Origin: Macrostomum lignano
Lineage: Eukaryota
Length of the DNA stretch: 64,000 nt
Assembly (NCBI GenBank): GCA_002269645.1
Contig: NIVC01001189.1
Coordinates: 248,001-312,000 of the forward strand
Reading direction: 5' to 3'
The notes beneath the pieces are model-generated. The model made no database searches, was not told where the DNA came from, and worked only from the letters and a program-made list of their open reading frames with translations. The translations under genes were made by a program, and so were the position numbers. This document shows, one piece after another, positions 16,809 through 64,000 of this stretch. The stretch's first letter is position 1. Each line of letters opens with the position of its first letter.

Positions 16809-17297
16809 AATGAGAGTTAACCTAGGCTAAACGGATGCCGCGGTGGAAGAAATCGAACCCGGGACCTAATTTGCCAACCTGAAAAAATAACTAGACAAGA
16901 AGAAACTAGGCAATTTCGAAACGCACTTTAAGTTTGTATATTTTCGAGCACAGACTCAAAGCAGCTGCTTAATGGACGCGGGAGGAAAACCTAAGATTTT
17001 TATATTATGAATAAAAGCCGCTGTTAACTAGCAGACTTGCTTTAATGTACACAGCATAAGATTATGGGTTTACAGTAGTCGAACTTCGAGCAACGCGTAA
17101 AAAATAATAATTAACGATAGTATAACTATGAATGACTAACTATAGCAACTAGTACAGCGAACAGATAAAATAATAAACAGTCATTAATTCACCGGCCGTC
17201 AGGATGTAATTAGACAGAATAAAAAAATAAACAGCTCGCTTGCAAAATATTAATGCATGATTTTATATTGTTTTAAGATGCGCGATTAACACTTGTT

Positions 17298-20097
<2,800 letters not shown>

Positions 20098-22181: not shown

Positions 22182-25100
22182 TTAGGCATAATAGTTCAGG
22201 CTATTCTTCTTCTTAGCCTGAACCTCCAATATGGCGTCCATGTAGTCCTCGTGTGAGACCGTGGTAGCGCCGCGTCTCAGCGCCAGCATTCCGGCCTCAA
22301 CGCAGACCGCCTTGCACTGGGCCCCGTTGAAGTCGTCTGTACACCTGGCCAGCTCGTCGAAATTCACATCCGGCCGGACGTTCATCTTGCGCGAATGAAT
22401 CTGCATAATACGAGCTCGGGCCTCCTCGTTTGGGGCGGGGAATTCGATTTTGCGATCGAGCCGACCCGAACGGAGCAGGGCGGGATCGAGGATGTCGACG
22501 CGATTAGTGGCGGCAATCACTTTGATCTCCATATTCGGCTGGAAGCCGTCCAGCTGGTTGAGCAGCTCCAGCATGGTGCGTTGAACCTCGCGATCGCCGG
22601 ACTTCTCCGAGTCGAATCGTTTCGTACCGATGGCGTCCAGTTCGTCAATGAAGATGATGGCCGGCGCCTTCTCTTTGGCCAGGGAGAAGGCGTCACGGAC
22701 CAGCTTGGAACCGTCACCGATGAACATCTGCACCAGCTGGGGACCGGCCAGCTTTAGAAATGTGCTTTTGGTCTGCGCTGCGCAGGCTCGGGCTAGCAGA
22801 GTCTTGCCTGGGGGTGGCGGGGTTCGAATACTGGTGATCTGGGATCTACAGATACTGATGGGTGAGCTGGGATCTACAGATACTGATGGGTGATCTGGGA
22901 TCTATAGATACTGATGGGTGAGCTGGGATCTATAGATACTGATGGGTGAGCTGGGATCTACAGATACTGATGGGTGAGCTGGGATCTATAGATACTGATG
23001 GGTGAGCTGGGATCTATAGATACTGATGGGTGAGCTGGGATCTACAGATACTGATGGGTGAGCTGGGATCTATAGATACTGATGGGTGAGCTGGGATCTG
23101 TAGATACTGATGGGTGAGCTGGGATCTACAGATACTGATGGGTGAGCTGGGATCTATAGATAATGATCGGTGAGCTGGGATCTGTAGATACTGATGGGTG
23201 AGCTGGGATCTATAGATACTGATGGGTGAGCTGGGATCTGTAGATACTGATGGGTGAGCTGGGATCTATAGATACTGATGGGTGATCTGGGATCTACAGA
23301 TACTGATGGGTGATCTGGGATCTATAGATACTGATGGGTGAGCTGGGATCTATAGATACTGATGGGTGAGCTGGGATCTGTAGATACTGATGGGTGAGCT
23401 GGGATCTGTAGATACTGATGGGTGAGCTGGGATCTGTAGATACTGATGGGTGAGCTGGGATCTGTAGATACTGATGGGTGAGCTGGGATCTGTAGATACT
23501 GATCGGTGAGCTGGGATCTGTAGATACTGATGGGTGAGCTGGGATCTGTAGATACTGATCGGTGAGCTGGGATCTGTAGATACTGATGGGTGAGCTGGGA
23601 TCTACAGATACTGATGGGTGAGCTGGGATCTACAGATACTGATGGGTGAGCTGGGATCTGTAGATACTGATGGGTGAGCTGGGATCTGTAGATACTGATG
23701 GGTGATCTGGGATCTGTAGATACTGATCGGTGAGCTGGGATCTGTAGATACTGATGGGTGAGCTGGGATCTGTAGATACTGATGGGTGAGCTGGGATCTG
23801 TAGATACTGATCGGTGAGCTGGGATCTGTAGATACTGATGGGTGAGCTGGAATCTGTAGATACTGATGGGTGAGCTGGGATCTATAGATACTGATGGGTG
23901 AGCTGGGATCTACAGATACTGATGGGTGAGCTGGTATCTGTTGAGACTAGCTGTGATGATTTGGAATCTGTAGGGATTAATGGAGATTATCGAGAATCTC
24001 ATTCTAAATTAAAAAAACTATCTTAAAATGCAAAAAGCTACATTTACCAGTGCCAGGAGGTCCATAGAGCAAGACACCCTTCGGCGGCTGAATCCCAATT
24101 GACTTAAATCGCTCCTTGTGTGTCATTGGCAACACAACAGCCTCGATTAGTTCCTAAAAAATAGTACAATTCGTATTGATGACAGCTGAAGGAACTAACA
24201 GTTGAACTGCCGTGACTTCCCGTTCAGTCTCTACAGTTCGGTGCGCGCAATGGTTCAAGACTCAAGTCATTGTCTAGTTCTGAGCCTGGCTATCAAGCTT
24301 TGCAGCAGTTCCCATCCATAAAGCATTAATTAGTTATGCCTACCAGTTTGGTTGCCTGTCTTAGCATTTAGTGTCTGTGTCCGTCTGCGCATCTGCCTGA
24401 CTGTCTGTCTGTGTCTATATTTGCCTGTCTGTCTGTTTGCTTGTGTGCGTGTCTGTGTCTGTCTGTCTCTACCTGCTTGCCTGTCTGTCTGTGTGTGTGT
24501 GTGTGTGTCTGTATCTGCCTGTCTGTTTGTGTGCGTGTCTGTCTCTGTATCTGCCTGCCTGCCTGTCTGCCTGTTTGTCTGTTGAAATATACAGCTGATT
24601 AAACAACAATATACCTGAATTTGCTTATCCAGACCGCCGATATCGCTGTACTGCTCAGTTGGTCTCTCGTCCACCTCCATCGCCTTGACCCTAGAGTCGT
24701 ACTCAGCCGGCAGCTTCTCCAAGATGAGGAATGAATCCTTGTTAACGCCAACCAGATCGGCTGGTTTCAGTTCCTCCGGCGGCACTAGGCCGATAACGGG
24801 CAGGAAATAAGTCTGCCTAGTGCTAGTTTTAATCACGGCCGATTTGCCCTTGCGCTGCGAGTCCAAGTCAACATTGGCGCCGTCGGCCTCTTCGGCAGCG
24901 TCAATGTCCAGCAGTTCAATTACGTTGGACACTAAATAGGGCAGCTGTTTGTTTACTTTAATTTTTTCGGCATTCTCTTTGATCTTTTCCTTCTGAGCGC
25001 TGGTCTCGTGGCTAACCCTGGTCAACTCGGAGCGCATAATTCGTATTTCATTGTCTAGTAGCCGAGTTCGACGAACTATTTCGTCATTCGACATGCGCAG

Positions 25101-28100
25101 CACCTCGTCGCCAAGGTTGTCCTGTCCAGGGATTAAATATGGGCAGTCATTTTTGGTTTTATATTGTCAAAGGTTTTCAGCTGCCTTTTTTGTGTCAGAA
25201 TTGCAGTGCCTTTGGCATCCCAGGTCCAAACTCAGGACAGCGAATGGAAAACCAGAATGCCAGTTGGCATCAGTCAAAATAATCAAAATCAAATGAAATA
25301 TCTAACACCTACCCTATCATTTACACTCCTTTAGTTTGCAGACTTCTTGTTTACAGATTACTCAAATTTGATAATTGATAAAATTCTTAAAATCCTTATG
25401 ATTATACAATCATTGCTACATGTATTTATTCTTTGAAATTAAAATCATAATTTTTGGCAATAAAAAACCTAGATTTTAGCCCTATTGAAGTAAATTGAAA
25501 AAAGGCATAGATGTCTATTAAGCCTGCCAGTGAGCAGGCAAACTTTGATCTAAGGTATGCAGCTATATAGGATCACTGTATATAAGATTACTGGTTCAAT
25601 GGACAAATTACAAATAAATTATTTATCACCAACTGCTTGTGTGTTAACCAGCCCCAGCATGGTATACTACATATACTAAACTAAAATATACTAAAGCATA
25701 CTTTTTAAAAATAATTTTTAAACCTATTTTTTACAATATAGTATATGCAAGTTTTTATTTACCTTTTTTTGCAAAGATGTTGCAAGCCTTTAATATAGGT
25801 TGTCTTTTTTGTTTTTTTCATTTCTCTTTCTAATGATCAGTGACAGTCTTCTTGGCATATTTTTATGTGAAATATGTCTATTGGCATACATTGGCATATA
25901 GGACCTAGGGAAGCAAATTTCATTCTGGTGTATACTATAATACAATCCTATCACTAGTGTGTTAAAGTTAAACATTTGCTTGCAACCATGTGTTTCCTAT
26001 TCTTAAACAAATCATATAGACAGGAAAATGAAATTTTTGAACCAATTCAAATCAATTTTTATGTTTGATAAAATCTATTTGAATATTGACTAATATTGAA
26101 TATGGGTATATTAGTCAATAATATACCCACCTTACTACTTATCAATCTGACCAATAGGCCTACATCTTTCTTTTTATCCAATAAATGCCCTCAAGACCAA
26201 ATGGCCAACCCTACTCTTCCATGTTTTGAGAATTAGTTCCCCATACACCTATGCTCCATAAACTTGATTCTTTATGCTCCACTTTTCCTAAAGCCTTAAA
26301 GCCTCATAAAGCCTCAATTTAAGTATAATATGCTTGCAACTGCTCAAGCACCCAGCTGTTTCTCTTTAAGATATGCCACCTATTATCCCATCCTAAATTT
26401 TCTTTCTCATTTATAAACCATAATCCTTAAACTTGACTTGTCAACTCAAGAACTTTTTTCAAATATTTCTAAATATAAATGATCATTTAAAATTTTCTTT
26501 TCTTAGAATACATTAACAATAGCACAAAGATAAAGGGTTGCAATCAAAAAAGTCATTTGGCATGCTTAGCATGCACGAAAACAGTTGACTAAAAATGTTG
26601 GCATACTTGGTGTAAATTCATAGTAGCTTTGCTCATCTTTGATTCAGATATGCCTTTGCCACTTTCCTAAGCATAGGCTATTTGCCATGCATTTAGAGGA
26701 ATTTCTTTAGTGCTAGCTTCATCTTATCAATGCTTTTGGCCACATTATATACTAGATTGCCTATTATTACCTTTGCTAGGTTTTGACATAAATAGAGATA
26801 TTCCAAACTTTTGATTTTAATTTTCCAAATTTTGTAATATTTAGGAGCAAATTTTGATTTCAAAAAATTTCAGAAGTCCAAATTTTAAAAGTGTCTAGTT
26901 GTGAAATTTTTTATCTAATTTTAATATTCTTAGAAGTTTGTTACTGTGTTGAATCAGTGATATTTTTATACTTTTTAAAAAGTATTTAGATTTATTAAAA
27001 CTGTTTTATAAATATAGCATATTTGCAGAAATGTAGTAAGTTTTTGTAAATTTTGCAGAACTTAACTGTAAAGGCATTTGCTATTATATTGTGTATTTTG
27101 TGCATATTATGTCAGTACAGATACATATACAGTTTATACAATTATGTGTTATTGCTATTCAGTAATATAATGTACATGTATATTAACCTACTAGCTTACA
27201 TTGAGTGATATTACATGTATATATAAAAGATACAAGAGAGACAGACAAAGGCACTATGCATAAAGATAAGTATATACAATGATAGTATACAGTGCCAAGT
27301 CCCAAGGGGTAACTATAGATTTTATAGTTTTTGCAGTGAAAAAGTATTTGAATTCAAAAGAACAATCAGAACTCTATATATCTAGTGACTAATTTATCCC
27401 ATATGCATATAGGCCTATATTTTGTTTTGCATTAGCAGTAAATAAAAAATAAAAAAATGAATGTTGCTCATGCTAAATTTGTTTTTTTGAATTTTGATTT
27501 AGGAAAATTTCAATTTTATTTTCAATTTTGATTTTAGAAAGTAGTGAATTTTGATTTCAATTTCAATTTTGAAAAAAAAAACTTTTAGAATACCTCTAGA
27601 TGCAAATCTTGACACTCATTGTATCATTGTTTCTAATTACTTGTTTCATTGTTTACCAGGTTTGTGTACTAATCTGAAATTAAAAACTTTGAAATTTCAA
27701 ATTGTTAAGAACTGTTATGAATTTCTGGATAGAAAAAAATTATTTTATTGTTTCAATAGATTGGGGTACGTCCAAAAATGCTAAAATCAGCTTCTTAAGT
27801 GAAGAAAATGTAAAAAACATTGAAAAAATACTTTCACAAACAATTTAGGAAGAATACCAAAAGGCAAAACTTTAAGCCTAGTTATGCCTAGTTATATTAA
27901 TAGGCCTAATACAATTGAATTAATTCCATCCAAGCCTTGACATCTTAGAAATCCCCCCAAGCCTTGAAATTACAGCAATTCTCTCAGTAAGCCTTCACAT
28001 TGCAGGATTTCCCCCAGAAAGATGCCAATTAGTTGAGTGTAGTGTACTCTAGTCTAGGCTAGCCAAGCATGATGATGCATCAAACAAACATAATTATTCC

Positions 28101-34800: not shown

Positions 34801-37800
34801 GTGGCCGTCAGCGTCCATGTCTCGGCGTTATACAGCAGGGCGGTCTCAGCCACCACCTGCCACAGCCGAGCCTTCTGACGATCGGGCAGCGCCTCGGACT
34901 GAAGGACGGCCCGGATGGATCGATAGGCCGCCCAGGCGAGTCCTTTGCGCCACCAGATGTCCTTCTAATATAGGGCGTCAGACCGCCGAGGTAGATGAAC
35001 CGCTGACAGCGTGCGAGCGTGGCATTGAGAAGGTGATGGCCGCCATCTTTTTCCGTTGCTGCGACATCTTGCGGCCAGTGTTGCTCGAGCACGGCGTCAC
35101 AGTGTCTGTTGGATCGATACAGAGACTGTGACTGCTTGGCGGAGGTGCTCCAGTCACTTGATCAAGAGCGGCCAAAGTCGGTCCAGACAATGCAGCTTCA
35201 GCAACTGCCTTTTTCGGCTTATCCGCCCAGCCTTGCGACTTCTTCCTCTTTCCCAAAATGAATAACTTTTAGGAGAGGCGGTTTGACTCTGCCTTGCAAG
35301 CTGAGCTGGACTTGTTCCAAAAAAGATTATTTACATGGATCTGGATAGAAAATTATATTGAGAATTGTGATTAGGTTCCTAAGTAACCATGGGTATTAAA
35401 ATTCAGCTGAATCCAACAATGAGAAATGCATTTTTCCGAGAACTCAACCAGCACCTCTATCACTATCCCCAGCTACTAGACGAAGTCCTTGACAACGGCT
35501 TCCCCCTAGCAACGGAGTCCAATATCCTCAAAGAGCTAATCCGGCCGCCTAACCTGCTGCGCAGCTTGGCGGACACCATGACCGGCCGGAACTCCACCGT
35601 ATCGGCCACGCTGCCAACCGGCCAGCTGTCCAACATTCCGTGGCGGCGTAGCGGTGTGAAATACGCCAACAACGAAGCCTATTTTGATATTGTTGAAGAG
35701 CTGGACGCAATCGTTGATAAATTTGGCGGCGCTGTCTGCGCTGAGGTGCACGGCAGCATCGACTGCCTCATCAAATTGTCCGGCGTCCCGGATCTCACGC
35801 TCAGCTTCGTGAACTCGCGCCTGATTGAAGACGCCAGCTTGCATCCGTGCGTCCGGCACAGGCGATTCGAAGTTGAACGCCTGCTTAGCTTTGTACCGCC
35901 GGACGGCGGCTTCAGACTGATGGCCTATAGGGCCAGTTGCCATGGCAACCTGCCCGTACCGCTCGACCTGCGTCATACGATTAGCTTCAAACAGGCTAGT
36001 AAGTTCATATGAAACAGCTATGGGGCCCATTGTATACTCATGTTTCCTGTAATTTACACCAATTACTATTTCCATTAGATCCAATATACAAAAAAATGAT
36101 TATGTTGAACCATATATCTAGGTTAGCTATGTTATTGAATTTGAAGTCTCACGAAAGTAGAAAAGCCTTTAACAGTCACTAGTACTGCTCCCAGATCTGC
36201 AGAATCGCCTTTAACAGTCACTAGTAATGCTCCCAGATTTGCAGAATCGCCTTTAACAGTCACTAGTACTGCTCCCAGATCTGCAGAATCGCCTTTAACA
36301 GTCACTAGTACTGCTCCCAGATCTGCAGAATCGCCTTTAACAGTCACTAGTACTGCTCCCAGATCTGCAGAATCGCCTTTAACAGTCACTAGTACTGCTC
36401 CCAGATCCCCATTGGAGCGAATAGGGGTTTTTGCGGACAACGTCCGGCGCGCTTGTGAAAAATTGCCTGCGCGGCTGCGCAGAAAGAAATTTCTGTCCGC
36501 GCACAAGGTGCATGGCGCGCGCGCAGCGCGCACCATGCACCTTGTGCGCGTAATGTTACTAGCATATATGTAGATCTGCACGCAGCGCGCACCATGCACC
36601 TTGTGCGCGTAATGTTACTAGCATATATGTAGATCTGCACGCAGCGCGCACCATGCACCTTGTGCGCGTAATGTTACTAGCATATATGTAGATCTGCACG
36701 CAGCGCGCACCATGCACCTTGTGCGCGTAATGTTACTAGCATATATGTAGATCTGCACGCAGCGCGCACCATGCACCTTGTGCGCGTAATGTTACTAGCA
36801 TATATGTAGATCTGCACGCAGCGCGCACCATGCACCTTGTGCGCGTAATGTTACTAGCATATATGTAGATCTGCACGCAGCGCGCACCATGCACCTTGTG
36901 CGCGTAATGTTACTAGCATATATGTAGATCTGCACGCAGCGCGCACCATGCACCTTGTGCGCGTAATGTTACTAGCATATATGTAGATCTGCACGCAGCG
37001 CGCACCATGCACCTTGTGCGCGTAATGTTACTAGCATATATGTAGATCTGCACGCAGCGCGCACCATGCACCTTGTGCGCGTAATGTTACTAGCATATAT
37101 GTAGATCTGCACGCAGCGCGCACCATGCACCTTGTGCGCGTAATGTTACTAGCATATATGTAGATCTGCACGCAGCGCGCACCATGCACCTTGTGCGCGT
37201 AATGTTACTAGCATATATGTAGATCTGCACGCAGCGCGCACCATGCACCTTGTGCGCGTAATGTTACTAGCATATATGTAGATCTGCACGCAGCGCGCAC
37301 CATGCACCTTGTGCGCGTAATGTTACTAGCATATATGTAGATCTGCACGCAGCGCGCACCATGCACCTTGTGCGCGTAATGTTACTAGCATATATGTAGA
37401 TCTGCACGCAGCGCGCACCATGCACCTTGTGCGCGTAATGTTACTAGCATATATGTAGATCTGCACGCAGCGCGCACCATGCACCTTGTGCGCGTAATGT
37501 TACTAGCATATATGTAGATCTGCACGCAGCGCGCACCATGCACCTTGTGCGCGTAATGTTACTAGCATATATGTAGATCTGCACGCAGCGCGCACCATGC
37601 ACCTTGTGCGCGTAATGTTACTAGCATATATGTAGATCTGCACGCAGCGCGCACCATGCACCTTGTGCGCGTAATGTTACTAGCATATATGTAGATCTGC
37701 ACGCAGCGCGCACCATGCACCTTGTGCGCGTAATGTTACTAGCATATATGTAGATCTGCACGCAGCGCGCACCATGCACCTTGTGCGCGTAATGTTACTA

Positions 37801-49786: not shown

Positions 49787-50165
49787 AGTAGTATGCTAGT
49801 AGTACATGATATTGTGCATGTAAATTGTTTGCATATACCGGCACTAGTAGTACAATATGATTGTGTACATGTACACAGCTTGCATATACTAGTAGTACAA
49901 TATGATTGTGTACATGTACACAGCTTGCATATACTAGTAGTACAATATGATTGTGTACATGTACACAGCTTGCATATACTAGTAGTACAATATGATTGTG
50001 TACATGTACACAGCTCGCAAATACTAATAGTACATTATGATGGCGTACATGTACACAGTTAGAATATACTATACTAGTAGTGCAATATAACGGTGTAAAT
50101 ATGTACACACGGTTTGAATCTACATTGTACTAGTAGTACTATATGATTGTGTACTTTGTGTACTT
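49787..50165. repeat. 45-bp minisatellite with a 16-bp palindrome (tgtgtacatgtacaca); continues at 63917-63980 beyond the LTR element
   Basis: Unit tactagtagtacaatatgattgtgtacatgtacacagcttgcata. Related units resume after the right LTR. Confidence 0.9.
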
Positions 50166-51200
50166 TATACGCGTCTTTCTCTGGGGCCTTTGAGTTCGAG
50201 TTCTCACTTTCTTAAGATAGATGTCTAGCGGTCTAAGGTTCTTACAGCTCTTAGTCTCTCCTATCAGGCCGTCAGAGAAGACCGTATAAACTGACGGGAT
50301 CTCCTAGTATCTAAGCTGAGTTGGAGTCTCCCTAAGATTTGCTCTATGTCACAGTTAAGGCAAATGATCGATTTGAGACTCGGGTTTCTGCCAACTGGAT
50401 AATCCAGAAACTAATTCAAATGGAGCAATTCAAGATCGAATAACTGCGCAGGAAAAACGAAGCGCCGCTCCAGTTTGAGATGAGCGTCTATTTGTACCAA
50501 TTAGCATGTTTGGCCTCCCCGCCGCCGGTGGGGTGTCTTCGCGTTGTTAGCAACGGCGGGGGGTTTTGAGCAATAACAAACTGGGACTCAGTCCCCTAAT
50601 TGTACATGAATTTAGTTAGTTCTAGTAGGTTGCTAAGTGTGAAGGTTAGAGATTATTCGGGCTTTCGCAAATCTATGTGTTGAGTTGGATAAAATTTGGG
50701 ATAGAAAGATTATAGAAAAAGTGCTTAGTTTTCCGTCTCTACACTCTGTCCATGAATGATTAAACAGTCCTCTGTTTCTCTCGGTTGTCAGGCAGCTTGG
50801 GGTTGATCTCGCCTTCTTGGGCAGCTTCGGGTTGGGTAGGAGTCTCTAGGTGGGCCTCACGTTTTCTCCCTCAGGGTGCGCCAGAAGATGCCGCGTGCCG
50901 CGTTGTTCTCTAAGTCAGGCTGCTGCTCAGTTTGCTTTTCCCGGCCGGTTTAGTCGCCATTGTGCCTGCGGCGGGGTGACGCTACTAACTGGAATGGAAG
51001 GAGGCTTTGTTAGATTCGGCTATTCAAATTGACTTGACAGTTGATTAATTATCTTAAAGCTGCTTCTGTTTGCTCTTCTAATAGCTATCTAGGGGTTCCA
51101 TTGTACTCTTCTGCCTCGCCCTTCACTGCGCCTGGGCTTTTCATAAATTTCTACCTATCTTCTAACTTGGGGTCAAAACTTCAGATTTCTAACTCTTATA
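50166..51200 (-). repeat. 3' LTR (1035 bp)
   Basis: Direct repeat of 62881-63916. The offset changes from 12715 to 12716 at a C4/C5 run. Confidence 0.97.
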
Positions 51201-51203
51201 TGA

Positions 51204-51217
51204 TTCCCCCTTTTTTC
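51204..51217 (-). other. Polypurine tract GAAAAAAGGGGGAA
   Basis: Purine run on the minus strand ending 3 nt before the 3' LTR. Confidence 0.9.
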
Positions 51218-51420: not shown

Positions 51421-51738
51421 TTAGTCATCTTCAAGTTGAACATTGCCGCTTCTGGCCCATAGGTACTGACGATATCCCTGCAGTGTGGGCCAGGGTCGAA
51501 TGGTACTGGAGGCCGTGTAGTCGCCTCCCCTCCACGGTATCTCCGTGGGGGTCATCTCGCGTCCCCACTCGGCGTCGTTGTCAACTTGGGTGGCCACTGA
51601 ATGGCCCCCATCTATGTCGCTCTCGGCGACTTGCGTCTGCGCATCCTTTTTGATGCACTTGTGGACGTGGAGATTTACGTCCACAAAGGCTTCGCCGGGT
51701 CGCCGAGCATAAGCGTCTTCGGGTGAGTAAGTGGCCAT
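51421..51738 (-). CDS. Accessory ORF B (105 aa), unknown function
   Basis: True ATG (cccATGG) 10 nt after an acceptor-like ttaatttcag (51757-51748). No recognisable domain. Confidence 0.45.
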   Translation of the reverse strand: MATYSPEDAYARRPGEAFVDVNLHVHKCIKKDAQTQVAESDIDGGHSVATQVDNDAEWGREMTPTEIPWRGGDYTASSTIRPWPTLQGYRQYLWARSGNVQLEDD

Positions 51739-53737: not shown

Positions 53738-56700
53738 TCATTTGTCTAGGAGTATGGGTTTGCTCCTTAGATTGTACTTCTTTCGAACTGTGTCCGCGAG
53801 CGTCTCGTCATCAGCTTGTACGCCCACTTCCTTGCTGAACAGTTGCCGGTGCTGGCGTTGCAGTCTTCGCGGATCACTCGGGCGCAGATCGGGGAGCAGT
53901 ACCTTAGGTGTTGGCGATGCTATTGGCTTTAGCCTGTCCGTGTGCACCTGAAAGGGTTCTTGAGTCGGATCGTCAATTTTCCTTATCATGACGGACGTGA
54001 CACTATTTCTTTTCACAATTTCGTATGGACCCGTGAACTTGGCTTGATGCTTTCCCTGTCTCATTGGGATCTGTAGCATAACTCTGGTGCCTATGGCTAA
54101 TGTAGGGGCCATTCGGTTTTTGTTAGCTCTGCCTGTGTTCTTTTCCTGGGCCACTTTGAGATGGTGTCTGGCTATGTCTCTAGCCAGGGTGATAGCTTCT
54201 TGCATTCGGGCTGCATAGGACGGCTCATCCATGTATCTTACTAGGTTCAGCTGAGTTGTGAGCTCTGTGGGCATCAGGGGTTTCCTTGCGAAAACCAATT
54301 CGAAGGGAGAATAAGTTGAAGAGGATTGCTTGGCTGTATTGTAGGCGTAGATTGTGGCTGATAGATATTTATGCCATTCGTTTGGATTCTCCGCAGTGTA
54401 ATGTCTAAGCATGTTATGTAGGGTAGAGTGTAGTCTCTCTACGTGGTTTGCTTGCGGATGGTAGGTAGACGAGAAGATGTGCTTGACTCCCAGAATTTCT
54501 AGAGCTTCCGCTAATAGCGATGCCGTGAAATTTTTTCCATTATCGGTGGAAATTTCCATCGGGATTCCAAACATACAGAAGACTTGGAACAAAGTTTCGG
54601 CTGTGGTTTCTGCTGATAGATCTGGAATCGGGAATGCAAAGGCGAATTTTGAAAAACAACACAGGATAGTCAGGATGTGGGTGACGGTCTCGTTCCGGAT
54701 TTTCGTGGGGACCATGGGTCCTACTAGGTCTACTGATAGCTTGTCCATTGGTTTCATCGGAATTTCAGGCATTTGGATGAGTCCCTTATGCAGTTGGCCA
54801 GATTTGTTCTTAGCGCAATCCATGCAGTCTTGACAGAAGGTTCGAATATCGGAAACCATTGAGATCCAAAAATAGTGTCGCCTAATTCTTTCTAGGGTTT
54901 TGTCAAAGCCTAAGTGCGCTGCTAGTGGTAGTGCGTGTAACGAGTGGCAGATTGTTTCACGGTACTTGAATGGGAGCACTATTTGTTGGGTGTGATCTGC
55001 TGTCCTGTGAATGATTCCGTGAATATCCGCATAGTCCGATAGATGTCGCTGGATGTGTCTTTTGTATCTCATAGCTAAGCTGTCATCCATGGGCTTTTGT
55101 TCCCATAGTGCTCGAATGCCTTGGCAGAATGGGTCTTCTGCTTGAGCCTCTTTTAAGGCTTGCAGGTGTGGTATCGGGTGCTTGATCGTGACAAAGTTAA
55201 TGGGTGTCTCTTGGTCCTCATATAGTCTTGAGAGTGCGTCTGGGACTGCGTGTTTGGTGGATGCGCCTGGGACGTACTCAATTTGCATTTGAAACTGTTG
55301 TAAATAGAGAAGCCATCTGAGTACCTGATTGTTCCGCAGGGTTTTCCCTGTGAGTAGACCTCTGAGTGGTGCATGATCTATTCTTAGCAATGTGGGTATT
55401 TGTGCTGCGTACAGAAATTGTTCGAATGTCTTGAATGCGTAAAAGACGGCTAAGAGTTCTAAATGGGTGACCGCATATCTTGTCTCTGCCTCTCTCAGTT
55501 GTCGACTCGTGAATGCTATTGGTTTTTCTTTTCCTGTCTCATCTTTCTGTGAGAGCATTGCGCCTATGCCTTTTGTAGAAGCGTCGCTGGAGACAATGAA
55601 CTGTTTATTAAAGTCAGGGTGAGTGAGTCTGAGATCTTCTGCTATCCATTTTTTCATGTCTTCAAAGGTCTGGGTCGCTTCTTCTGTCCACTTTAGTGGG
55701 GTTTTGGATGCTTGAGCCTTAGTGTTCGGTGTGCCCTTAAGCAGGTCTGTGAGTGGCTTGGCTTTCTTGGCGTAGTTAGGTACGTGTTTGCGAAAGAAAT
55801 TGCAGAGTCCTAGGAAACATCTGAGCTGTGTGACATTTTGTGGCTTTGGTACCTTCTGCACTTTGTCGACTAAAGCTCTATCAATCTGTATTCCATTTTT
55901 GTCTATCTTATGTCCTAGGAATGTGATTGTGGGCTTAGCGAATTTGCACTTTTGTAATTTCAACTTCATGCCGTACTTTCCTAGAGCTTCTAGTGTAGCT
56001 TTCAATGTCTCGAGATGGTCTTCAAATGTCTCATTGAAGACAAGTAGGTCGTCTACGTATGTTGAGACTCTGTTAATCCCTTGAAGGATTAAGCTAGCTG
56101 CTCTAGAGAGGGCTGCTGGTGAGGTTTGTAGACCCATTGGGGCTCTGGTGAAGACGTAAGTTTGTCCGTCGGGCGTGGAGATGCCACAATACTTCTGACT
56201 TTCTTCTTCTAGCGCCACTTGAAAAAATGCTTGCGCCATGTCGAGAGTAGTGAAATATTCTGATCCCTTTAATTTGGCTAAGAGGTCTGGGATTCGGGGC
56301 ATGCATTGCCTTTCTGGGACCAGGATTTGGTTGAGGTCCCGAAAATCAACACAGAGACGGTACACTGGTTTGGCTTGAGGCGATTCCGGTTTCTTCTTGA
56401 CCAATAGAATTGGTGAGATGTACGGGGTGGCTGCTTTTCTAAGAATTCCTTGCATTTCCATTCTATCGATGATTTTCTGGAGTTCTCCCGTGAGTTGGTA
56501 TGGGATTGGGTACCGTTTGTTGAGCTTAATCTCCACGTTAGGCTTAATGTGAAGCTCGTGTTTCGCTACATCTGTGTATCCTATTTCCTCCTCGGATAGG
56601 CAAAAGGCTTTCTTGTTGTCCCAGAGAACCTTAATGAGCTGTTCTTTCTGGGATTCTGTCAGGTTGGATCCTTTGAGATCAATGGCGTTCTTGAACTCTT

Positions 56701-59700
56701 GTTCCGTCATTGTTGGGGTTTCTGACTGGATTTCGGCAATTTCAAAGGCTTGGATTTCTGTATCGAAAGATCCTATGTTGGTGTCTGGATATAGTGTCAT
56801 TGGGGTTGCCGATTCGTTTGAAATGATGACTTGAACCTCTCCTGACTCGTCAGGGTATACCAATTCGGGTGTAAGGCAAATGGGTTTCTTCTCTAGGATA
56901 CGTTCGTTGGGTTCGAAAAGCATAGCTGGAGGTAGTTTCTCTCTGGCGATGGCTCTTGCGGAAATTCGAGTTGTTTCCCATGGATTGAGATTGACTGTAG
57001 AGACTAATCTGATGCAGTTAACGGGTTCTTTTGTAGTGATAGCGAGGATGTCATAGCATTTCCCGTTGAGATGGATATTCTGTTGCTGATAGTTTACGAG
57101 CACGCCCTGATTTAGTTGAGATAAGTAATCGATGCCTAATAAGACTTGATAAGTTCCTGAACTCAAATTGGGAATAACGTGGAACTCAACGTCAGCCGTG
57201 GTGTCGCCAGCTTCCACAGGGAGGTTGATCATGCCGGATTGCTGTAGTCGTGAGCCTTGTACTCCTTGCAGTTCAACTGTGGCCGGCTTGAAGGTCCTGC
57301 CGTATCGCTTTGCTGTGGCTTCGTCGATTAAGGATCGTTCGGCTCCACTGTCGATCAGGGCTCGGCAGGATCGCGTTCCCACTTGAAGTCGGGTGATTGT
57401 GTACTTCTGCTTCTGGCCGTTGTTGACCGTCGCCACCATCGGAGGTGGCCAACTGGACTCTATCTTCGGGTAGAGTCCTGTTGATGCTGGTGCTGGTGGC
57501 GTCCACGGTGGCGGGCGCTGTGGTGCCTGTCTGGTTGTCGTGGTCTCCTGCCGCGTGTTCTGGCTTGTCGAGTTCGCTACTAGCGGTGCTCGTAACTCCT
57601 GTAGCTCCTGCTGTTCTTGCTTTGCAGCAGCTTTGCGCTGGATCGTGCGGATGCCAGGACGTTGGTACTTCTGTTTGTTGAGTCTGTGGCAGATAAGGAT
57701 CATTTGGTATAAAAGATATATGTAGAACCCAATGGCAGCTACTCCTACAGCGATATCGAAAAGATTCACTCGCATGCCTAGCCATGGTAGCCAACTTGCT
57801 GGATCAAAGGTGCCTTCCGCTATGGTGGCATCTAACGGTGGAAGATGTATAGAGTGAGAGGTTTCTGACTTGGGCAGTTTGAAAACAGTTCTTAAGAACT
57901 CTCTCTGGTCATTTAGCTGGTTGTACAAGTCGTGTACTGTGACCGGGCTTTTGAGATCGGCTATCCTGATGTCTCCATCAGGAGTGAATATGACATGCTG
58001 AATCTCTGGGGGTTTTATGAGGGTTACCCCCCACGCTTCTCTTTCTAGCTTAGTGACCGTTTGCACAGTAAATTTCGTAAAGTTGAGGTCTGTTTTGTAG
58101 ATTTCGTCTCCTTTTGGTAGGAAATACGACGTTTGGTTAGAGCAATCGTGAAATGGCGGGTGTTCCTTTTGGATTTCCAGGGTTCTAACATCTAGAAAGC
58201 CTGTGTGGTTCATGTTGAATATCGTGAAGGCAATTGGTGGTTTGGTAAAGCAGATATTCTCATCCCATCTTGGTTGGTGAAAACGAAAGTTTCTGATGGG
58301 TAGGCACTTAGAAATGACTACATGCTGTGCTAGCGTGGTGGCTTTTAATTGGCTGTCTTTGAACAAAGTGCGCGCTGCTAGGGTGGGCTGCATAAGAAAA
58401 AGATCTTTTATGTACCGAAACAGTGTTTGCTGATGCTTGCATTGTTGTAGTATCATGTTTCGAGTAAGGTCGCCTATTCTGTCTTCCATTGTGAGTTCTA
58501 GCCCTTGTAATTTTGCTGCTAGCGTTGTGTCCGATGTGAGGTCTCGTTTTGGTCTCTTAGCGGTGCTTGAATTGTTGAATGAACCTTCAATTATGCTGCG
58601 AAACTCTTGGTCTGAGCCGTGCACCTGGACTAGTTTACCTTGTTCCGACTTGTATAGCTTTACTGTCGTGTCTCCACATTGTAAGTCCTTAGTCTGAGGT
58701 GGATGTTTGAATGTGAGGGCAAACGTAGCGTCGTTAGACATGAACCATCCAGTGTGAATTTTGCCTTGAATGAATCTGTCTGTTTGATAGGGGCAGTCTA
58801 TCTCTGCGCTGGGTGTCCATACTAGGCGGTATTGTCTATCTCCTCTCACTGTGTAGCTGAGATCATAGTATTCCATTACGGCCCAGAGTCTGTCTGGTGC
58901 CTGTCGGTTCAGTGGCGAGTCCTTCTCTGCCGTGAGGCTAGTAGTCGTGGTACAGGTTCCTGTCTTGTAGTCGCATTGACCTATAGGGAGGGCTAACGAA
59001 GACATCTTTTTCTCTTCCACAAAGAATGAGACCTGGGTGATTAGGACTGACACTGTTTGAGTGAAGGTTTGAGCTGTACTGGCTGTAGGTTCCAATTCCT
59101 GGGTTGTCCACTTATGGGTAATGAATCTTTTAGCTTGTCCCATAGCCTTAGTTCCTGCTTCTAAAGTCCCATCTTGGGTTCGGGTGTTTTCTTCCCATGT
59201 TTTACAATCGTCCTTCGAAACTGAATGTTGTTGCACAGTAACAGTCATGGCTGGACTTACCACTTGTGATGTTACAACAATCTGTGGCTTACTCGTGAAC
59301 GTGTAGGTCTCTCGGTAACATATCTTCAGTGTAGACCGGTGTGATACCTGGTTCTCCTTGTAGACTGTGATGTTGATCGGTTGCCGATGCTGTTGAATGC
59401 TACTCGGGACTGTGCATTCGATGTCCGGAGGCAATTTGAAGGCTTGAAGGCTGTTCGCTTCTGGGCAGTAGAGTGGTGTGTCCACGTAGCTGCTGTGCTG
59501 TGCCGTTGTTGCGTTGCCAGCCGCGGTGCAGAACAGTGCGAGCAGTACTATTCGCAGCAGCCATCCTGTGGTTGAGGCTGTTCGTCGGCTTTGGCTCCAT
59601 GTCGGTGTAGTTCTCGGCTGTCGAATCGCTATCTGTGGCTTGGGCTCGTCAGTGTCAGGACATTTCTCGATCTTCTGTGGTCGCTCTTGCTTCTCCGTCC

Positions 59701-60919
59701 GGTCGCTCTCGGAGCGCGGTGTTAGTGTCGCCGTCGTGATGTGGCCGATCTTGACCTTGACTGCCTTGCGAAGTTGTCGCTTGGCTTGAATGATGTCGTC
59801 GCGGGTTACCACTGGTTCCGTAACTGTCTCTTCTTGCTTGGTTGACTCTGCTGGAGTGTCCGTCGGTGGCTGTTGCTGAGGCTGCTCCTTGGTTACTTCT
59901 GCGGTTTGCCGTGGTTGCGGTGTTGGTGTCACCGCTGTATTGTAGCCAATCTTGACCTTGGCTGCCTTGCGAAGCTGTCGTCGAGCTTGAATGATGTCGT
60001 CGCGAGTTACCACTGGTTCCGTAACAGTCTCTTCTTCCTGGGTGGACACAGCTAGAATGTCTGCCGGTGGCTGTTGCTGAGGTTGTTCCTCGGTTACTTC
60101 CGCGATTTGTCGTGGTTGCCGTTGCTGATTTGGTCGGCCGTTGTTGTATTGAGGACCTTGGTAGCCGTTATTCCTGTTGCTCGGGTATCCTTGACGCTGA
60201 GCCGGTTGGCCCTGTCTCTGGGGGCTCGGGCGATCGCATTCAACTGTCCAGTGAGACTTCTGCTTACAATGGTGACAATAACGTCGGCACTGAGCGGCCA
60301 AATGGCCAGGCTTACCGCAATTGTTGCAGTTTCTGCTGGTGCCTCTGGCTCCTTGTGGCTGTTGACGGCTGCTTCCTGGGCTGGCGCCTTGCTGTCGGTT
60401 GCGCTGATAGCACCTGTCTGCCGTATGTCCCTGCTTCTGACATAACTGGCAGCTTGTCGCGGCGTTTCCGCTTCGCGGGCGTGGATTGTTCCATGGCTGT
60501 TGCGGTCTGTTGTTCACTGTCTTGATCGTCGCCTCCATCTGGGCGACCAATGCCGATAGCTTGCGGGTGTCCTCGGTTTCTCGCTCAATGTCGTGAAGTG
60601 CTTGCCATTGCAGTGCCTCTCGAGTCATTTCCGTCACTGTTTGATAGCGTCCTCTGGCTAGGTGAAGTCGTAGTGCCGGAACTGCGTTCTGCTGGACGTG
60701 TAGCATGATGTGATCTTGAATGATCCGTTGGTTCCTCTGTCGCCGTAGTGCCGCATCTGCTGCATTTTCTTCTTCCGGGGCTGGTTCTTGATAGACGGAG
60801 TTCTCGACCAGGTTGGTGATATCTGCGATGAATTTGTTGACGTCTTCTCCCGGTTGCATCTTGCGGGATGCCAGTTGTAGAATCGCCGTTGATCGGTCCA
60901 TCCTTCGGGTGTCGAACAT
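53738..60919 (-). CDS. Gag(C-terminal)-Env-PR-RT-RNaseH-IN polyprotein, 2393 codons from the first Met of this frame (frame is open further upstream to ~61115)
   Basis: Three CCHC knuckles 60451-60236; signal peptide 59566-59516; furin RPKR 58555-58544; TM 57754-57689; protease DSG 57352; RT YVDD 56059-56048; RNase H SDAS ~55585; IN HHCC plus DLVGP/TDNG/VERLH (54730/54544/~54440); GPY 54031-54023. Confidence 0.95.
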   Translation of the reverse strand: MFDTRRMDRSTAILQLASRKMQPGEDVNKFIADITNLVENSVYQEPAPEEENAADAALRRQRNQRIIQDHIMLHVQQNAVPALRLHLARGRYQTVTEMTREALQWQALHDIERETEDTRKLSALVAQMEATIKTVNNRPQQPWNNPRPRSGNAATSCQLCQKQGHTADRCYQRNRQQGASPGSSRQQPQGARGTSRNCNNCGKPGHLAAQCRRYCHHCKQKSHWTVECDRPSPQRQGQPAQRQGYPSNRNNGYQGPQYNNGRPNQQRQPRQIAEVTEEQPQQQPPADILAVSTQEEETVTEPVVTRDDIIQARRQLRKAAKVKIGYNTAVTPTPQPRQTAEVTKEQPQQQPPTDTPAESTKQEETVTEPVVTRDDIIQAKRQLRKAVKVKIGHITTATLTPRSESDRTEKQERPQKIEKCPDTDEPKPQIAIRQPRTTPTWSQSRRTASTTGWLLRIVLLALFCTAAGNATTAQHSSYVDTPLYCPEANSLQAFKLPPDIECTVPSSIQQHRQPINITVYKENQVSHRSTLKICYRETYTFTSKPQIVVTSQVVSPAMTVTVQQHSVSKDDCKTWEENTRTQDGTLEAGTKAMGQAKRFITHKWTTQELEPTASTAQTFTQTVSVLITQVSFFVEEKKMSSLALPIGQCDYKTGTCTTTTSLTAEKDSPLNRQAPDRLWAVMEYYDLSYTVRGDRQYRLVWTPSAEIDCPYQTDRFIQGKIHTGWFMSNDATFALTFKHPPQTKDLQCGDTTVKLYKSEQGKLVQVHGSDQEFRSIIEGSFNNSSTAKRPKRDLTSDTTLAAKLQGLELTMEDRIGDLTRNMILQQCKHQQTLFRYIKDLFLMQPTLAARTLFKDSQLKATTLAQHVVISKCLPIRNFRFHQPRWDENICFTKPPIAFTIFNMNHTGFLDVRTLEIQKEHPPFHDCSNQTSYFLPKGDEIYKTDLNFTKFTVQTVTKLEREAWGVTLIKPPEIQHVIFTPDGDIRIADLKSPVTVHDLYNQLNDQREFLRTVFKLPKSETSHSIHLPPLDATIAEGTFDPASWLPWLGMRVNLFDIAVGVAAIGFYIYLLYQMILICHRLNKQKYQRPGIRTIQRKAAAKQEQQELQELRAPLVANSTSQNTRQETTTTRQAPQRPPPWTPPAPASTGLYPKIESSWPPPMVATVNNGQKQKYTITRLQVGTRSCRALIDSGAERSLIDEATAKRYGRTFKPATVELQGVQGSRLQQSGMINLPVEAGDTTADVEFHVIPNLSSGTYQVLLGIDYLSQLNQGVLVNYQQQNIHLNGKCYDILAITTKEPVNCIRLVSTVNLNPWETTRISARAIAREKLPPAMLFEPNERILEKKPICLTPELVYPDESGEVQVIISNESATPMTLYPDTNIGSFDTEIQAFEIAEIQSETPTMTEQEFKNAIDLKGSNLTESQKEQLIKVLWDNKKAFCLSEEEIGYTDVAKHELHIKPNVEIKLNKRYPIPYQLTGELQKIIDRMEMQGILRKAATPYISPILLVKKKPESPQAKPVYRLCVDFRDLNQILVPERQCMPRIPDLLAKLKGSEYFTTLDMAQAFFQVALEEESQKYCGISTPDGQTYVFTRAPMGLQTSPAALSRAASLILQGINRVSTYVDDLLVFNETFEDHLETLKATLEALGKYGMKLKLQKCKFAKPTITFLGHKIDKNGIQIDRALVDKVQKVPKPQNVTQLRCFLGLCNFFRKHVPNYAKKAKPLTDLLKGTPNTKAQASKTPLKWTEEATQTFEDMKKWIAEDLRLTHPDFNKQFIVSSDASTKGIGAMLSQKDETGKEKPIAFTSRQLREAETRYAVTHLELLAVFYAFKTFEQFLYAAQIPTLLRIDHAPLRGLLTGKTLRNNQVLRWLLYLQQFQMQIEYVPGASTKHAVPDALSRLYEDQETPINFVTIKHPIPHLQALKEAQAEDPFCQGIRALWEQKPMDDSLAMRYKRHIQRHLSDYADIHGIIHRTADHTQQIVLPFKYRETICHSLHALPLAAHLGFDKTLERIRRHYFWISMVSDIRTFCQDCMDCAKNKSGQLHKGLIQMPEIPMKPMDKLSVDLVGPMVPTKIRNETVTHILTILCCFSKFAFAFPIPDLSAETTAETLFQVFCMFGIPMEISTDNGKNFTASLLAEALEILGVKHIFSSTYHPQANHVERLHSTLHNMLRHYTAENPNEWHKYLSATIYAYNTAKQSSSTYSPFELVFARKPLMPTELTTQLNLVRYMDEPSYAARMQEAITLARDIARHHLKVAQEKNTGRANKNRMAPTLAIGTRVMLQIPMRQGKHQAKFTGPYEIVKRNSVTSVMIRKIDDPTQEPFQVHTDRLKPIASPTPKVLLPDLRPSDPRRLQRQHRQLFSKEVGVQADDETLADTVRKKYNLRSKPILLDK
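57689..59566 (-). other. Envelope glycoprotein domain (class III fusogen, gB/chuvirus-G-like) inside the polyprotein, ~aa 452-1078
   Basis: Hydrophobic leader WLLRIVLLALFCTAAG, Cys-rich ectodomain with N-glycan sequons NAT, NIT, NNS/NSS, NHT, NQT and NFT, furin site RPKR, gB-like QPTLAARTLF...VISKCLPI, and a C-terminal TM helix. Confidence 0.8.
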
Positions 60920-61029
60920 TGCCCGTAGTGCTGGTATCAGTTCCTCGTAGTTCAGGCGAGTTGCCTCGTCCAGAGTTGAGTATTGATTGCGAGCATTCGG
61001 TCGTAGCAGTAGTGGTAGTAGTCGACATC

Positions 61030-61322
61030 TCTCGCATTTCCCAGTCCATAGTTTGCGCTTGAAGTTCGAACTCTCGTAACCAACGGACGAATGAGCGTCC
61101 CATTTCGTAGTCTCCTACTGATAGCTTGATGGCTTGGACAACTGTCGGTAGATCTCGGGTCTGCTGCAGTGCCAATTGTCTTGTCAGGTCGTTGATACGC
61201 TCCTGTAGTTGCGCTAAATCTTCGGCCATGTTGTCTTGTAGTGCTTCTTCTGGTTGTTGCTGGTCTTGTTGAGGATCGTCTTGATGCAAGTCTTCTTGGT
61301 GCTGTTCTTCTTGTTGAAGCAT
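61030..61322 (-). CDS. Gag N-terminal portion, separated from the polyprotein frame by a +1 frameshift near 61045-61025
   Basis: ATG at 61322 gives MLQQEEQ...GRSFVRWLREFELQAQTMDW. The capsid-like continuation ERCRLLPLLLRPNARNQYSTLDEATRLNYEELIPALRAMF is in the polyprotein frame. Confidence 0.75.
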
Positions 61323-62865
61323 GCGCCTTCTGGCTTGGGCAGTACGTCGATTGTTAGGTAGACCTGTAGGGTCTGGAGCTTGGTAATCTTCCAAAAAGTG
61401 AGGATGCGCTTGTAAACGTTGCGGTGTGGGCCGCAAAAAATTGGTACGATTCAGGTTGCAAGTAGTATAATAAAAGACAAACAAAATATCGTTGGCAGTG
61501 CTGGTCTGCTAGTGAGCAATTAAACGGTTTTAAATAGACAAATTGAGAAGGGGCAGAGGTTAGGATACGCTTCAGGCTCAGGCGGTGCAGTCGAGGTGGG
61601 TTTTGTTGTACCAAACAATTCGCATTTGTTGTAAAATAATTATAGTGTTGCTATATGCATTTTGTCATAGTGACTGTCATTTCAAGCAATAAAACAAAAT
61701 TCCGCATTTAACGTTTATGCAATATAACGCAAGATGTGTACTTATTGAGAATTAAATTGACTGTGCCCGCAGGCTTTGGAGTGTGCCGGTGCAGCTATGA
61801 ATTCGAAGGCAACTGGACAATTTCATTTGAATTGATTCTGCTTGGCTTTGTTATGTGCGCCTAATAAATGGTTAACAATATAATTCAATCAAAAGTAGCG
61901 CTTCTCCTGGAATGGCTAAGGTTGCGCAGCTGGAAATAGCGGAATGCTGTAGTTATTTTTAGTATCACTCATTTCTGCGGGCTTTCCCGCTGTTAGCAGT
62001 ATTATGTTGGCTTGAGATGCCTTGAAAAGTGAGCTCAGTATTAACGAGGGTTTATGTAGCTATGCCTGGTGGGGCAGACGTGTTAGTTTAACAACCCTAA
62101 GACACTACACTGGCAGGGTGCAGTGACACGGGCGGGCGTCTGTGCAGAATGGAAGTGCTAGGCAGGGAGATGCCCGATCCGGATAAGGACATCTCAGTGA
62201 CTCGCACCTCTATTCTTTACGTCAACCCTGCTGCCGAGAGTAGAACTCTCCCCGCAAGGACCTGCCTTCCCGCGGGCCAAACTCGCGCGCGCAATTAGTA
62301 AAGTGAGCTCCTTAGTGATCAGTCGATTAAAGTGATCAAAAGTAATTCCCGTGCACGGTACTTGCCATAGCTTGTGGCTGGATTATTGCCATACCTTGTG
62401 GCTGGATTATAAATTACGGATCCGTTTCAACAGAAAATGATTATTCAATTGTTAGACAAAATCAATTATGGTATCCAGGTAGCTACCCTCTTAGACAGTG
62501 TTAAGTGATTAAAATTGATTAAATTCTCTTCTACGCGAACAGATAAAGTATGGTTAGTCTATGTGTCCACTGGCAGTGAAACGCTGTTCATCACCAGGGA
62601 AGGTAATACAGTTAATTGTTTTTGTTAGTTTTCGAATTTTATCAATTTTTTTTGTTCGTTTTAGCATTTTATCAATTTTTTCTTTTTGAATAAGGACGCG
62701 TTTGTGTCCTTCTACGACACAGAGTAATTACGTAGAAAGAGAATTAAAAGGTGACTGCACTCATCCTGGCCTTCCACGCTCCGTCCTCCGCCGATGAAGT
62801 TACTCAGCCATACCGGGCGATCTCGTCAGGTGAAAATCGAAGAGCTGTTGATCAGATGACTCCGA

Positions 62866-62878
62866 GGTCAGGGAACCA
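62866..62878 (-). other. Primer-binding site TGGTTCCCTGACC, complementary to a tRNA-Glu-type 3' end
   Basis: Starts 2 nt after the 5' LTR. The plus strand reads ggtcagggaacca, which matches the metazoan tRNA-Glu(CTC) 3' end ...GGTCAGGGAACCA as recalled from memory. Confidence 0.8.
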
Positions 62879-62880
62879 CT

Positions 62881-63916
62881 TATACGCGTCTTTCTCTGGG
62901 GCCTTTGAGTTCGAGTTCTCACTTTCTTAAGATAGATGTCTAGCGGTCTAAGGTTCTTACAGCTCTTAGTCTCTCCTATCAGGCCGTCAGAGAAGACCGT
63001 ATAAACTGACGGGATCTCCTAGTATCTAAGCTGAGTTGGAGTCTCCCTAAGATTTGCTCTATGTCACAGTTAAGGCAAATGATCGATTTGAGACTCGGGT
63101 TTCTGCCAACTGGATAATCCAGAAACTAATTCAAATGGAGCAATTCAAGATCGAATAACTGCGCAGGAAAAACGAAGCGCCGCTCCAGTTTGAGATGAGC
63201 GTCTATTTGTACCAATTAGCATGTTTGGCCTCCCCCGCCGCCGGTGGGGTGTCTTCGCGTTGTTAGCAACGGCGGGGGGTTTTGAGCAATAACAAACTGG
63301 GACTCAGTCCCCTAATTGTACATGAATTTAGTTAGTTCTAGTAGGTTGCTAAGTGTGAAGGTTAGAGATTATTCGGGCTTTCGCAAATCTATGTGTTGAG
63401 TTGGATAAAATTTGGGATAGAAAGATTATAGAAAAAGTGCTTAGTTTTCCGTCTCTACACTCTGTCCATGAATGATTAAACAGTCCTCTGTTTCTCTCGG
63501 TTGTCAGGCAGCTTGGGGTTGATCTCGCCTTCTTGGGCAGCTTCGGGTTGGGTAGGAGTCTCTAGGTGGGCCTCACGTTTTCTCCCTCAGGGTGCGCCAG
63601 AAGATGCCGCGTGCCGCGTTGTTCTCTAAGTCAGGCTGCTGCTCAGTTTGCTTTTCCCGGCCGGTTTAGTCGCCATTGTGCCTGCGGCGGGGTGACGCTA
63701 CTAACTGGAATGGAAGGAGGCTTTGTTAGATTCGGCTATTCAAATTGACTTGACAGTTGATTAATTATCTTAAAGCTGCTTCTGTTTGCTCTTCTAATAG
63801 CTATCTAGGGGTTCCATTGTACTCTTCTGCCTCGCCCTTCACTGCGCCTGGGCTTTTCATAAATTTCTACCTATCTTCTAACTTGGGGTCAAAACTTCAG
63901 ATTTCTAACTCTTATA
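62881..63916 (-). repeat. 5' LTR (1036 bp)
   Basis: Direct repeat of 50166-51200, flanked by the PBS on one side and the TSD on the other. Confidence 0.97.
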
Positions 63917-64000
63917 TACTTTGCTTGCATATATTAGTAGTACAAAATGATGGTGTACATGTACTTTCTTAGCTACTAGTTAAAAAAAACAAAAAAGGAC

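Follow-up and report, generated by a model that had tools for sequence, protein, structure and literature searches.

A recently mobile Ty3/Gypsy family in the flatworm Macrostomum lignano with a predicted gB-type env in frame between gag and pol and conserved accessory genes behind pol

Ty3/Gypsy elements of the GAG-ENV-POL order, with a gB-type env, have been reported in Nematoda, Bryozoa and Platyhelminthes, where they are not monophyletic, and one Macrostomum lignano element, Platyhelminthes_Rhabditophora_Mlig_errantivirus_2, has been catalogued (Chary and Hayashi, eLife 2026, PMC13524379). The same paper credits the nematode GAG-ENV-POL layout to Sacco et al. 2022 (J Gen Virol 103:1739) and gives the entry mechanism of gB-type elements as unknown; the available portion of its text makes no mention of a single polyprotein, splicing, accessory genes or frameshifts. 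A first-pass annotation of the M. lignano locus described here had rightly pointed to gB-type env-bearing Gypsy elements in other invertebrates, published for nematodes, bryozoans and flatworms (PMC13524379, available text). Its further suggestion, that a single-ORF gag-env-pol layout might be new, does not hold, since the order is published for these three phyla, one M. lignano element included (PMC13524379), and single-ORF versions occur among nematode-named database proteins. A literature search on Macrostomum gypsy/LTR envelope elements found nothing. The locus represents a real, young family of a known element type, and the layout itself is not new.

The window, by which I mean the whole stretch of 64,000 nt that was analysed and in which all positions are counted, contains a Ty3/Gypsy element of 13.75 kb (Table 1). 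Its two LTRs are 99.9% identical, with one gap, and their ends (63916, 62881, 51200, 50166) read TA...TA where TG...CA is usual. Thirteen nucleotides of the primer site pair with the 3' terminus, CCA included, of host tRNA genes that a pattern search identified; the three loci scanned contain four such genes, all of them tRNA-Glu. The LTRs, target duplication, primer-binding site and polypurine tract are those of a Ty3/Gypsy element (Metaviridae), as are the PR-RT-RH-IN order with its GPY/F module and a reverse transcriptase that is closer to Ty3 than to retroviruses (against solved structures, Ty3 RT is best at E 4e-52, followed by foamy virus at 7e-37, MLV-type at 1e-24 and HIV at 1e-14). 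Both flanks consist of the same 45-bp satellite array (49789-50163; 63888-63967). Elsewhere in the window, stretches resembling host exons span 9482-36012, among them exons that I take to be CCDC124-like (12152-12658, minus strand), QRICH1/ZMYM-type domain-like (15285-16826, minus), RBBP4-like (18967-20097, minus), 26S proteasome ATPase-like (22182-25166, minus) and AP-3 mu-like (35383-36012, plus).

Table 1. Features of the element, by position in the window
Feature	Position	Strand	Remark
5-bp target-site duplication, upstream copy	63917..63921	-	downstream copy 50161-50165
5' LTR, ~1036 nt	62881..63916	-	ends set by target duplication
Primer-binding site, tRNA-Glu	62858..62878	-	
Probable splice donor	62804..62825	-	exon end 62814, then GT
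Gag N-terminus	61030..61322	-	acidic Q/E-rich start and capsid N-terminal part, in another frame here
Main frame Gag-Env-PR-RT-RH-IN, 2458 codons	53738..61114	-	
Three CCHC zinc knuckles (nucleocapsid)	60236..60451	-	
Putative internal signal after basic stretch, Gag/Env boundary	59510..59566	-	from hydropathy; cleavage predicted
Env, predicted class III fusogen	57680..59566	-	RPKR furin motif 58544-58555; five ectodomain N-glycan sequons; TM ~57683-57763
Env cytoplasmic tail / pre-protease spacer, proline-rich	57395..57682	-	YPKI at 57461-57472, late-domain-like
Aspartyl protease (DSG)	57110..57397	-	Pfam
Reverse transcriptase (YVDD) and RNase H	55292..56395	-	Pfam; nearest solved structure Ty3 RT
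Integrase (H2C2, core, GPY module)	53924..54973	-	
Accessory ORF2, 260 aa	52795..53577	-	CAG acceptor directly before ATG
Antisense accessory ORF, 86 aa	52055..52315	+	coiled coil, Gly linker, TM, Cys-Cys, RRR
Accessory ORF3, 105 aa, acidic	51421..51738	-	genomic matches
Polypurine tract	51204..51217	-	
3' LTR	50166..51200	-	

The family has been mobile recently, as both the LTR identity and the copies indicate. Four further long copies in this genome are 98-99% identical to the studied one (L002 99.4% over 10 kb, L005/L007 98.9-99.7%, L004 99.3% and L003 98.0%), whether as separate insertions or as duplicated host segments. In one sequencing run (X17), two joints lie inside pol, at 54166-56501 and 55411-56288, the second of which matches a rearrangement in L005/L007. 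Six genomic contigs (C208, C2003, C2433, C3497, C99 and C3129) match the accessory ORFs or gag and have no match in the genome Env search; these are possibly internally deleted, non-autonomous derivatives.

The main frame is 2458 codons long from stop to stop and 2393 from the Met at 60919, a length expected by chance at ~1e-50 given the local composition. Pfam places zf-CCHC, Monjiviricetes_fusion, aspartyl protease, RVT_1, RNase H and integrase along it in that order, and the full succession is the C-terminal part of capsid, three CCHC knuckles, a linker, a signal, the glycoprotein with RPKR, a TM segment, PR, RT, RNase H and IN with GPY. The first-pass annotation had seen this frame, its order and its anatomy correctly as one 2393-codon reading from Gag to integrase; it erred in the start, and the LTRs and the three accessory ORFs downstream of pol are missing from its list. 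The start Met that it used, at 60919, lies within capsid, and Gag begins at a Met at 61322, in a frame covering 60585..61508, such that the true polyprotein is about 135 residues longer at its Gag end, with about 2,500 residues in total. What separates the two frames in the assembled copy are small indels near 61.0-61.1 kb. This break is absent from L002 and L005, the two sister copies that cover the region, both of which read through it, and the contigs of all four runs used for such checks (from four studies, none on record as RNA) differ from the assembled sequence at the same place. Thus, the break is an assembly error or a lesion private to the studied copy, and a programmed frameshift is ruled out. 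The Gag linker also contains a 201-nt in-frame tandem duplication, 85% alike, at 59716-60117.

Between the nucleocapsid linker and the protease lies Env, at residues 452-1080 of the polyprotein, with its signal at aa 452-470 and a TM helix at ~aa 1053-1079 that is followed by basic residues. Pfam recognizes Monjiviricetes_fusion at aa 729-931 with 29 bits against a cut-off of 27. A search of the PDB with the single Env sequence gave nothing significant; a profile built from 11 distant-family Envs matches EBV gB at 8e-15, and nine of these 11 match Monjiviricetes_fusion. An AF2 monomer model (69 rows, pLDDT 80.7, pTM 0.58) finds HSV-1 gB as its best Foldseek match (E 2.7e-22, with TM-scores to gB of only ~0.37-0.40), and the first match among viral structure predictions is the glycoprotein of a nyavirus, at 8.5e-28. 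Sequence profile and structural model agree in identifying Env as a predicted class III, herpes-gB/nyamivirus-like fusogen, and the earlier assignment of aa 452-1078 to a glycoprotein is borne out as a gB-type fusogen in frame between gag and pol. The locus likewise has three features of the operational definition of gB-type errantiviruses in the available text of PMC13524379: a gB-type ectodomain between a signal and a TM segment, the order gag-env-pol, and several copies with more than 98% identity.

Env has matches at 71 places in this genome, ranging from 21 to 100% identity. The signal, furin motif and TM segment are kept in families with only 21-31% Env identity, the cysteines of Env are conserved across families, and, among 20 distant loci picked partly for long frames, 11 have knuckles, Env, RT, RNase H and IN in one stop-free frame of 2370-2866 codons. 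The hydropathy peak of the signal is positioned alike in 12 of 14 sequences, whether by score or by eye; it falls below threshold in L026, L027 and P0002, and is visible by eye for L026. Against a sister family, pN is 0.24 and pS 0.84, the latter saturated, and a closer pair (L018/L019) gives a dN/dS of 0.065. These substitution patterns indicate that Env is under purifying selection. Upstream of the furin site, the Env of family L026 (L026:2544-5096, plus strand) has ~200 inserted residues that are rich in Thr, Ser and Pro and mucin-like.

ESCRT late-domain motifs take the forms PTAP/PSAP, PPxY and YPxL, and in HIV the p6 late-domain segment sits just upstream of the protease. About 100 residues separate the TM segment from the protease in the studied element. 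At the same place, a sister family has PSAP and YPTI, and the studied tail has PPAP where the sister has PSAP. Of the motifs, the studied tail has only YPKI, and YPxL was loosened to YPx[LI] after YPKI had been seen; scored in this way, the tails of six families of this genome contain P[TS]AP in four cases and YPx[LI] in five. For relatives outside the genome, 45 were given and 12 dropped, either for want of a TM-protease pair or because the tail found was too short. Eleven of the remaining 33 have PTAP/PSAP, PPxY or YPxL in the tail, against 1.8 expected and with none of 500 shuffles reaching this number, in a count that includes some wrong boundaries (P0099) and relatives that share descent and so are not independent. 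The other 22 tails lack all three motifs in their strict form, and strict YPxL by itself is not enriched (2/33 against 0.7 expected). Reversed motifs served as one control (3/33 against 2.0 expected) and Gag linkers as another (2/48 against 1.4 expected). By this count, ESCRT late-domain motifs cluster in the Env tail across relatives. Since the tail occupies the position of HIV p6, just before the protease, the analogy suggests that the insertion of env separated nucleocapsid from a late-domain spacer. I found no report in print of late-domain motifs in such Env tails in a limited literature search, and Sacco et al. 2022 may cover them.

Finding relatives in the databases required a profile search, as word-indexed searches with Env alone were nearly empty, with one distant match among long proteins (P0002) and none among Env-sized proteins. 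The profile search returned 526 database representatives. Among the best 150, 26 are Gag-Env-Pol, 29 Gag-Env, 20 Env-Pol, 73 Env only and two have a protease match upstream, where Gag-Env-Pol means a Gag marker before Env and a Pol marker after it in one protein, and two of the 26 are probably from M. lignano. The organism names among the 20 looked up are Macrostomum lignano, Meloidogyne, Globodera, Caenorhabditis, Panagrolaimus and one bacterial bin. In the M. lignano protein the RT is identical to that of family L026, and for the Caenorhabditis protein Pfam confirmed Gag-Env-RT-RH-IN. The Gag-Env protein filed under the bacterial bin (P0012, Kangiellaceae) is probably from an animal contig. 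Two Gag-Env-Pol proteins from outside this genome, P0002 and P0021, apparently contain two tandem protease domains. In an RT-RH tree of the studied element and 24 of 30 matches (six were dropped for coverage below 0.8), the three families from this genome group as a single clade with long branches (99/98), and every row with a nematode name falls in another clade. The tree contains no env-less outgroup and thus has no say on a single versus a repeated origin of the layout; it splits flatworm from nematode families, and the idea that the arrangement evolved independently here finds no support.

Behind pol lie three accessory genes, and comparison among families indicates that all three are conserved and under selection. 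ORF2 has 29 genomic matches, down to 34-46% identity, and a dN/dS of 0.26 against L013. For ORF3 there are 37 matches, down to 36% identity, 31 of them without an internal stop. The antisense ORF has 31 matches, down to 41% identity, and 30 of these are free of internal stops; in the control, the frame opposite, 12 of 13 matches are at >=64% identity. ORF2, ORF3 and the antisense protein have no sequence likeness to known families in Pfam, Atlas and database searches: ORF2 found no homologue among database proteins of length 132-455 and no Atlas match, and ORF3 no Pfam match. I rejected a reading of ORF2 as APP_E2, for which the Pfam match is below cut-off only, and set aside one Atlas lead at 0.80 for the antisense ORF. 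The AF2 model of ORF2 (pLDDT 39.7) is unusable.

The ORF2 RNA is probably spliced from the leader. The donor GT is in register in sister family L016, the CAG-ATG junction is kept in L010 and L016, and in the sister family that keeps both, synonymous sites are saturated. The corresponding joint, 62814/53577 with GT..AG ends, is present in one contig, from run X2 (which is not listed as RNA), and on the shorter side of the joint this contig has 29 letters. In a distant family (loci L017, L018 and L023) a different gene, cysteine-rich and RING-finger-like by eye, is found 110-140 bases after the polyprotein stop, and in L017 and L018 the gene behind pol begins with a myristoylation-like Met-Gly.

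Genes other than env downstream of pol, ORFs on the antisense strand and small TM proteins each have precedents among LTR elements, at least in the available text of the papers concerned: bdelloid elements have ORF3s behind pol (PMC5408684), plant elements have antisense ORFs (PMC7264820), and extra or antisense ORFs are described elsewhere too (PMC11963269). The sORF2/FAST-like proteins of MDG1 are sense-oriented, were picked by their myristoyl motif, belong to env-less elements and have a ~30-aa ectodomain (PMC11952523). By sequence, the antisense protein shares with them a single TM segment followed by a polybasic stretch, and has a weak TM-juxtamembrane Pfam match below cut-off; it has no Gly2, has ~55 aa before the TM segment and is encoded antisense.

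At this point, I consider it likely that this recently mobile flatworm GAG-ENV-POL gB-type Ty3/Gypsy family works through a membrane-threaded polyprotein, in a scheme where every cleavage, the topology, budding, particles, infectivity and any functions of the accessory genes are predictions. Genomic RNA would be translated into one chain of ~2,500 residues, of which the internal signal after the nucleocapsid linker would thread Env into the ER, while Gag would remain cytosolic, with its C-terminus as the membrane anchor. Env would then be freed by host signal peptidase, and the Env TM helix would stop transfer and leave PR-RT-RH-IN hanging in the cytosol from the Env tail; the two hydrophobic segments would thus confine Env to the lumen and keep both Gag and Pol cytosolic. 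Furin would cut the Env ectodomain at RPKR, and the element protease would release capsid/nucleocapsid and the enzymes. The signal peptidase, furin and protease cuts are modelled on the handling of flavivirus and alphavirus polyproteins, a logic that the first-pass annotation had already proposed and that agrees with the conservation of signal, TM segment and furin site, although the processing itself is argued by analogy. PTAP/PPxY/YPxL-type motifs in the Env tail would recruit ESCRT, so that an enveloped particle buds, which would enter another cell by class III fusion and presumably reach the germ line. The leader-to-3' splice, which in errantiviruses yields Env, would here yield accessory ORF2. 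Against this scheme counts that a single chain would produce Gag, Env and Pol in equal amounts, and a search for conserved slippery heptamers, 2A motifs and synonymous-conservation islands that could raise Gag found none.

In an alternative, Env would be functional but no free virion would form, with a surface fusogen that fuses neighbouring cells, or with tail motifs that sort Env to endosomes or exosomes, and with capsids that pass from cell to cell. I consider this unlikely, while giving it some weight: the geometry of retroviral Gag is matrix-first, the opposite of a membrane anchor at the Gag C-terminus, PPxY and PTAP are also ubiquitin-dependent sorting signals, and the antisense TM protein is loosely like small cell-cell fusogens. 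However, that protein lacks the myristoyl motif and the sense orientation of sORF2/FAST proteins, and a signal, a furin site, a TM segment and ESCRT-type motifs together make up the usual kit of a budding virus. Less probable by a good margin is purely intracellular mobility, in which Env would be a passenger that persists because most indels and stops within it also cut off pol, or in which Gag-Pol would come from a spliced RNA that skips env. The fused layout does in itself select against env stops and frameshifts; yet the amino-acid constraint, the cysteines and the fold are conserved beyond what the frame alone requires, and no env-skipping joint was seen in the four runs, though contigs drop rare forms.

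Finally, the reading as an isolated insertion that happened to be in frame, or as a chimera of the assembly, for which only the indel breaks in the assembly of all five long copies of the family could speak, is refuted to the point of being negligible by bridged junctions, by the layout of the copies and by single-chain relatives in the databases and in other phyla. Single contigs bridge the Env-PR junction in all four runs, from four studies, and on the Gag side they continue for 129 to 765 bases beyond the Env signal, at 0-2 mismatched letters; the fusion is therefore not a chimera. Env lies between gag and pol in all four near-identical long copies, each with assembly breaks of its own, and the comparison of copies that the first-pass annotation had called for extends this layout to several distant families. 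That annotation had named a lack of fusogen homology, copies without the segment and chimeric junctions as grounds for abandoning its reading, and none of the three occurred.

Returning to the membrane-threaded polyprotein, a broader claim can be made, tentatively and with the balance somewhat against it, that such elements are complex enveloped reverse-transcribing viruses which would build their virion from one membrane-threaded chain, with env between nucleocapsid and a p6-like spacer, ESCRT budding driven from the Env tail and not from Gag, and Pol tethered there. The family described here would be an active one in a laboratory flatworm, with two additions: the slot that env once held would contain a spliced accessory gene, and the antisense membrane protein would be a further conserved component. 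The value of the locus lies in this model of processing and budding and in three orphan accessory genes under selection, the animal is tractable and its genome holds several families that are both young and diverged, and the late-domain motifs of the Env tail give a specific lead.

Compared with the GAG-ENV-POL 'ancient errantiviruses', as the available text of PMC13524379 describes them, the element is alike in its Ty3/Gypsy pol, its gB-type Env between gag and pol, its LTRs, its near-identical copies and its host group. The primer motif of Mlig_errantivirus_2 matches 13 of 38 loci, 12 of them upstream in a distant sister family and one elsewhere in its locus. The RT of the studied family is 36-40% identical to that of the sister family bearing this motif, and its LTRs measure ~1036 nt versus ~864 nt in Mlig_errantivirus_2. 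Because the tRNA-Glu primer 12-mer of the studied family is absent from the catalogue table of PMC13524379, as far as that table was available, the family seems to be uncatalogued there.

The element is no member of BEL/Pao (Belpaoviridae), as no Pao-type family is among its 11 Pfam matches and its env is not 3'. The NERV elements of Sacco and colleagues reportedly have a continuous gag-env-pro-pol ORF, a nyamivirus-like Env and extra small ORFs, and the first two of these features are found here as well. In contrast to NERV, with its nematode host and nematode RT clade, the host is a flatworm and the RT falls outside the nematode clade, with an RT-RH identity of 29-36%. With the Drosophila errantiviruses (gypsy, ZAM) and retroviruses, the element shares LTRs, an env, splicing from the leader to a 3' gene that follows pol (here probably ORF2) and late-domain motifs before the protease. 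Unlike them, it has a predicted class III Env, not an F-type or class I one, and no separate F-type env 3' of pol; its Env precedes pol and shares its frame, and an unrelated accessory gene occupies the spliced position.
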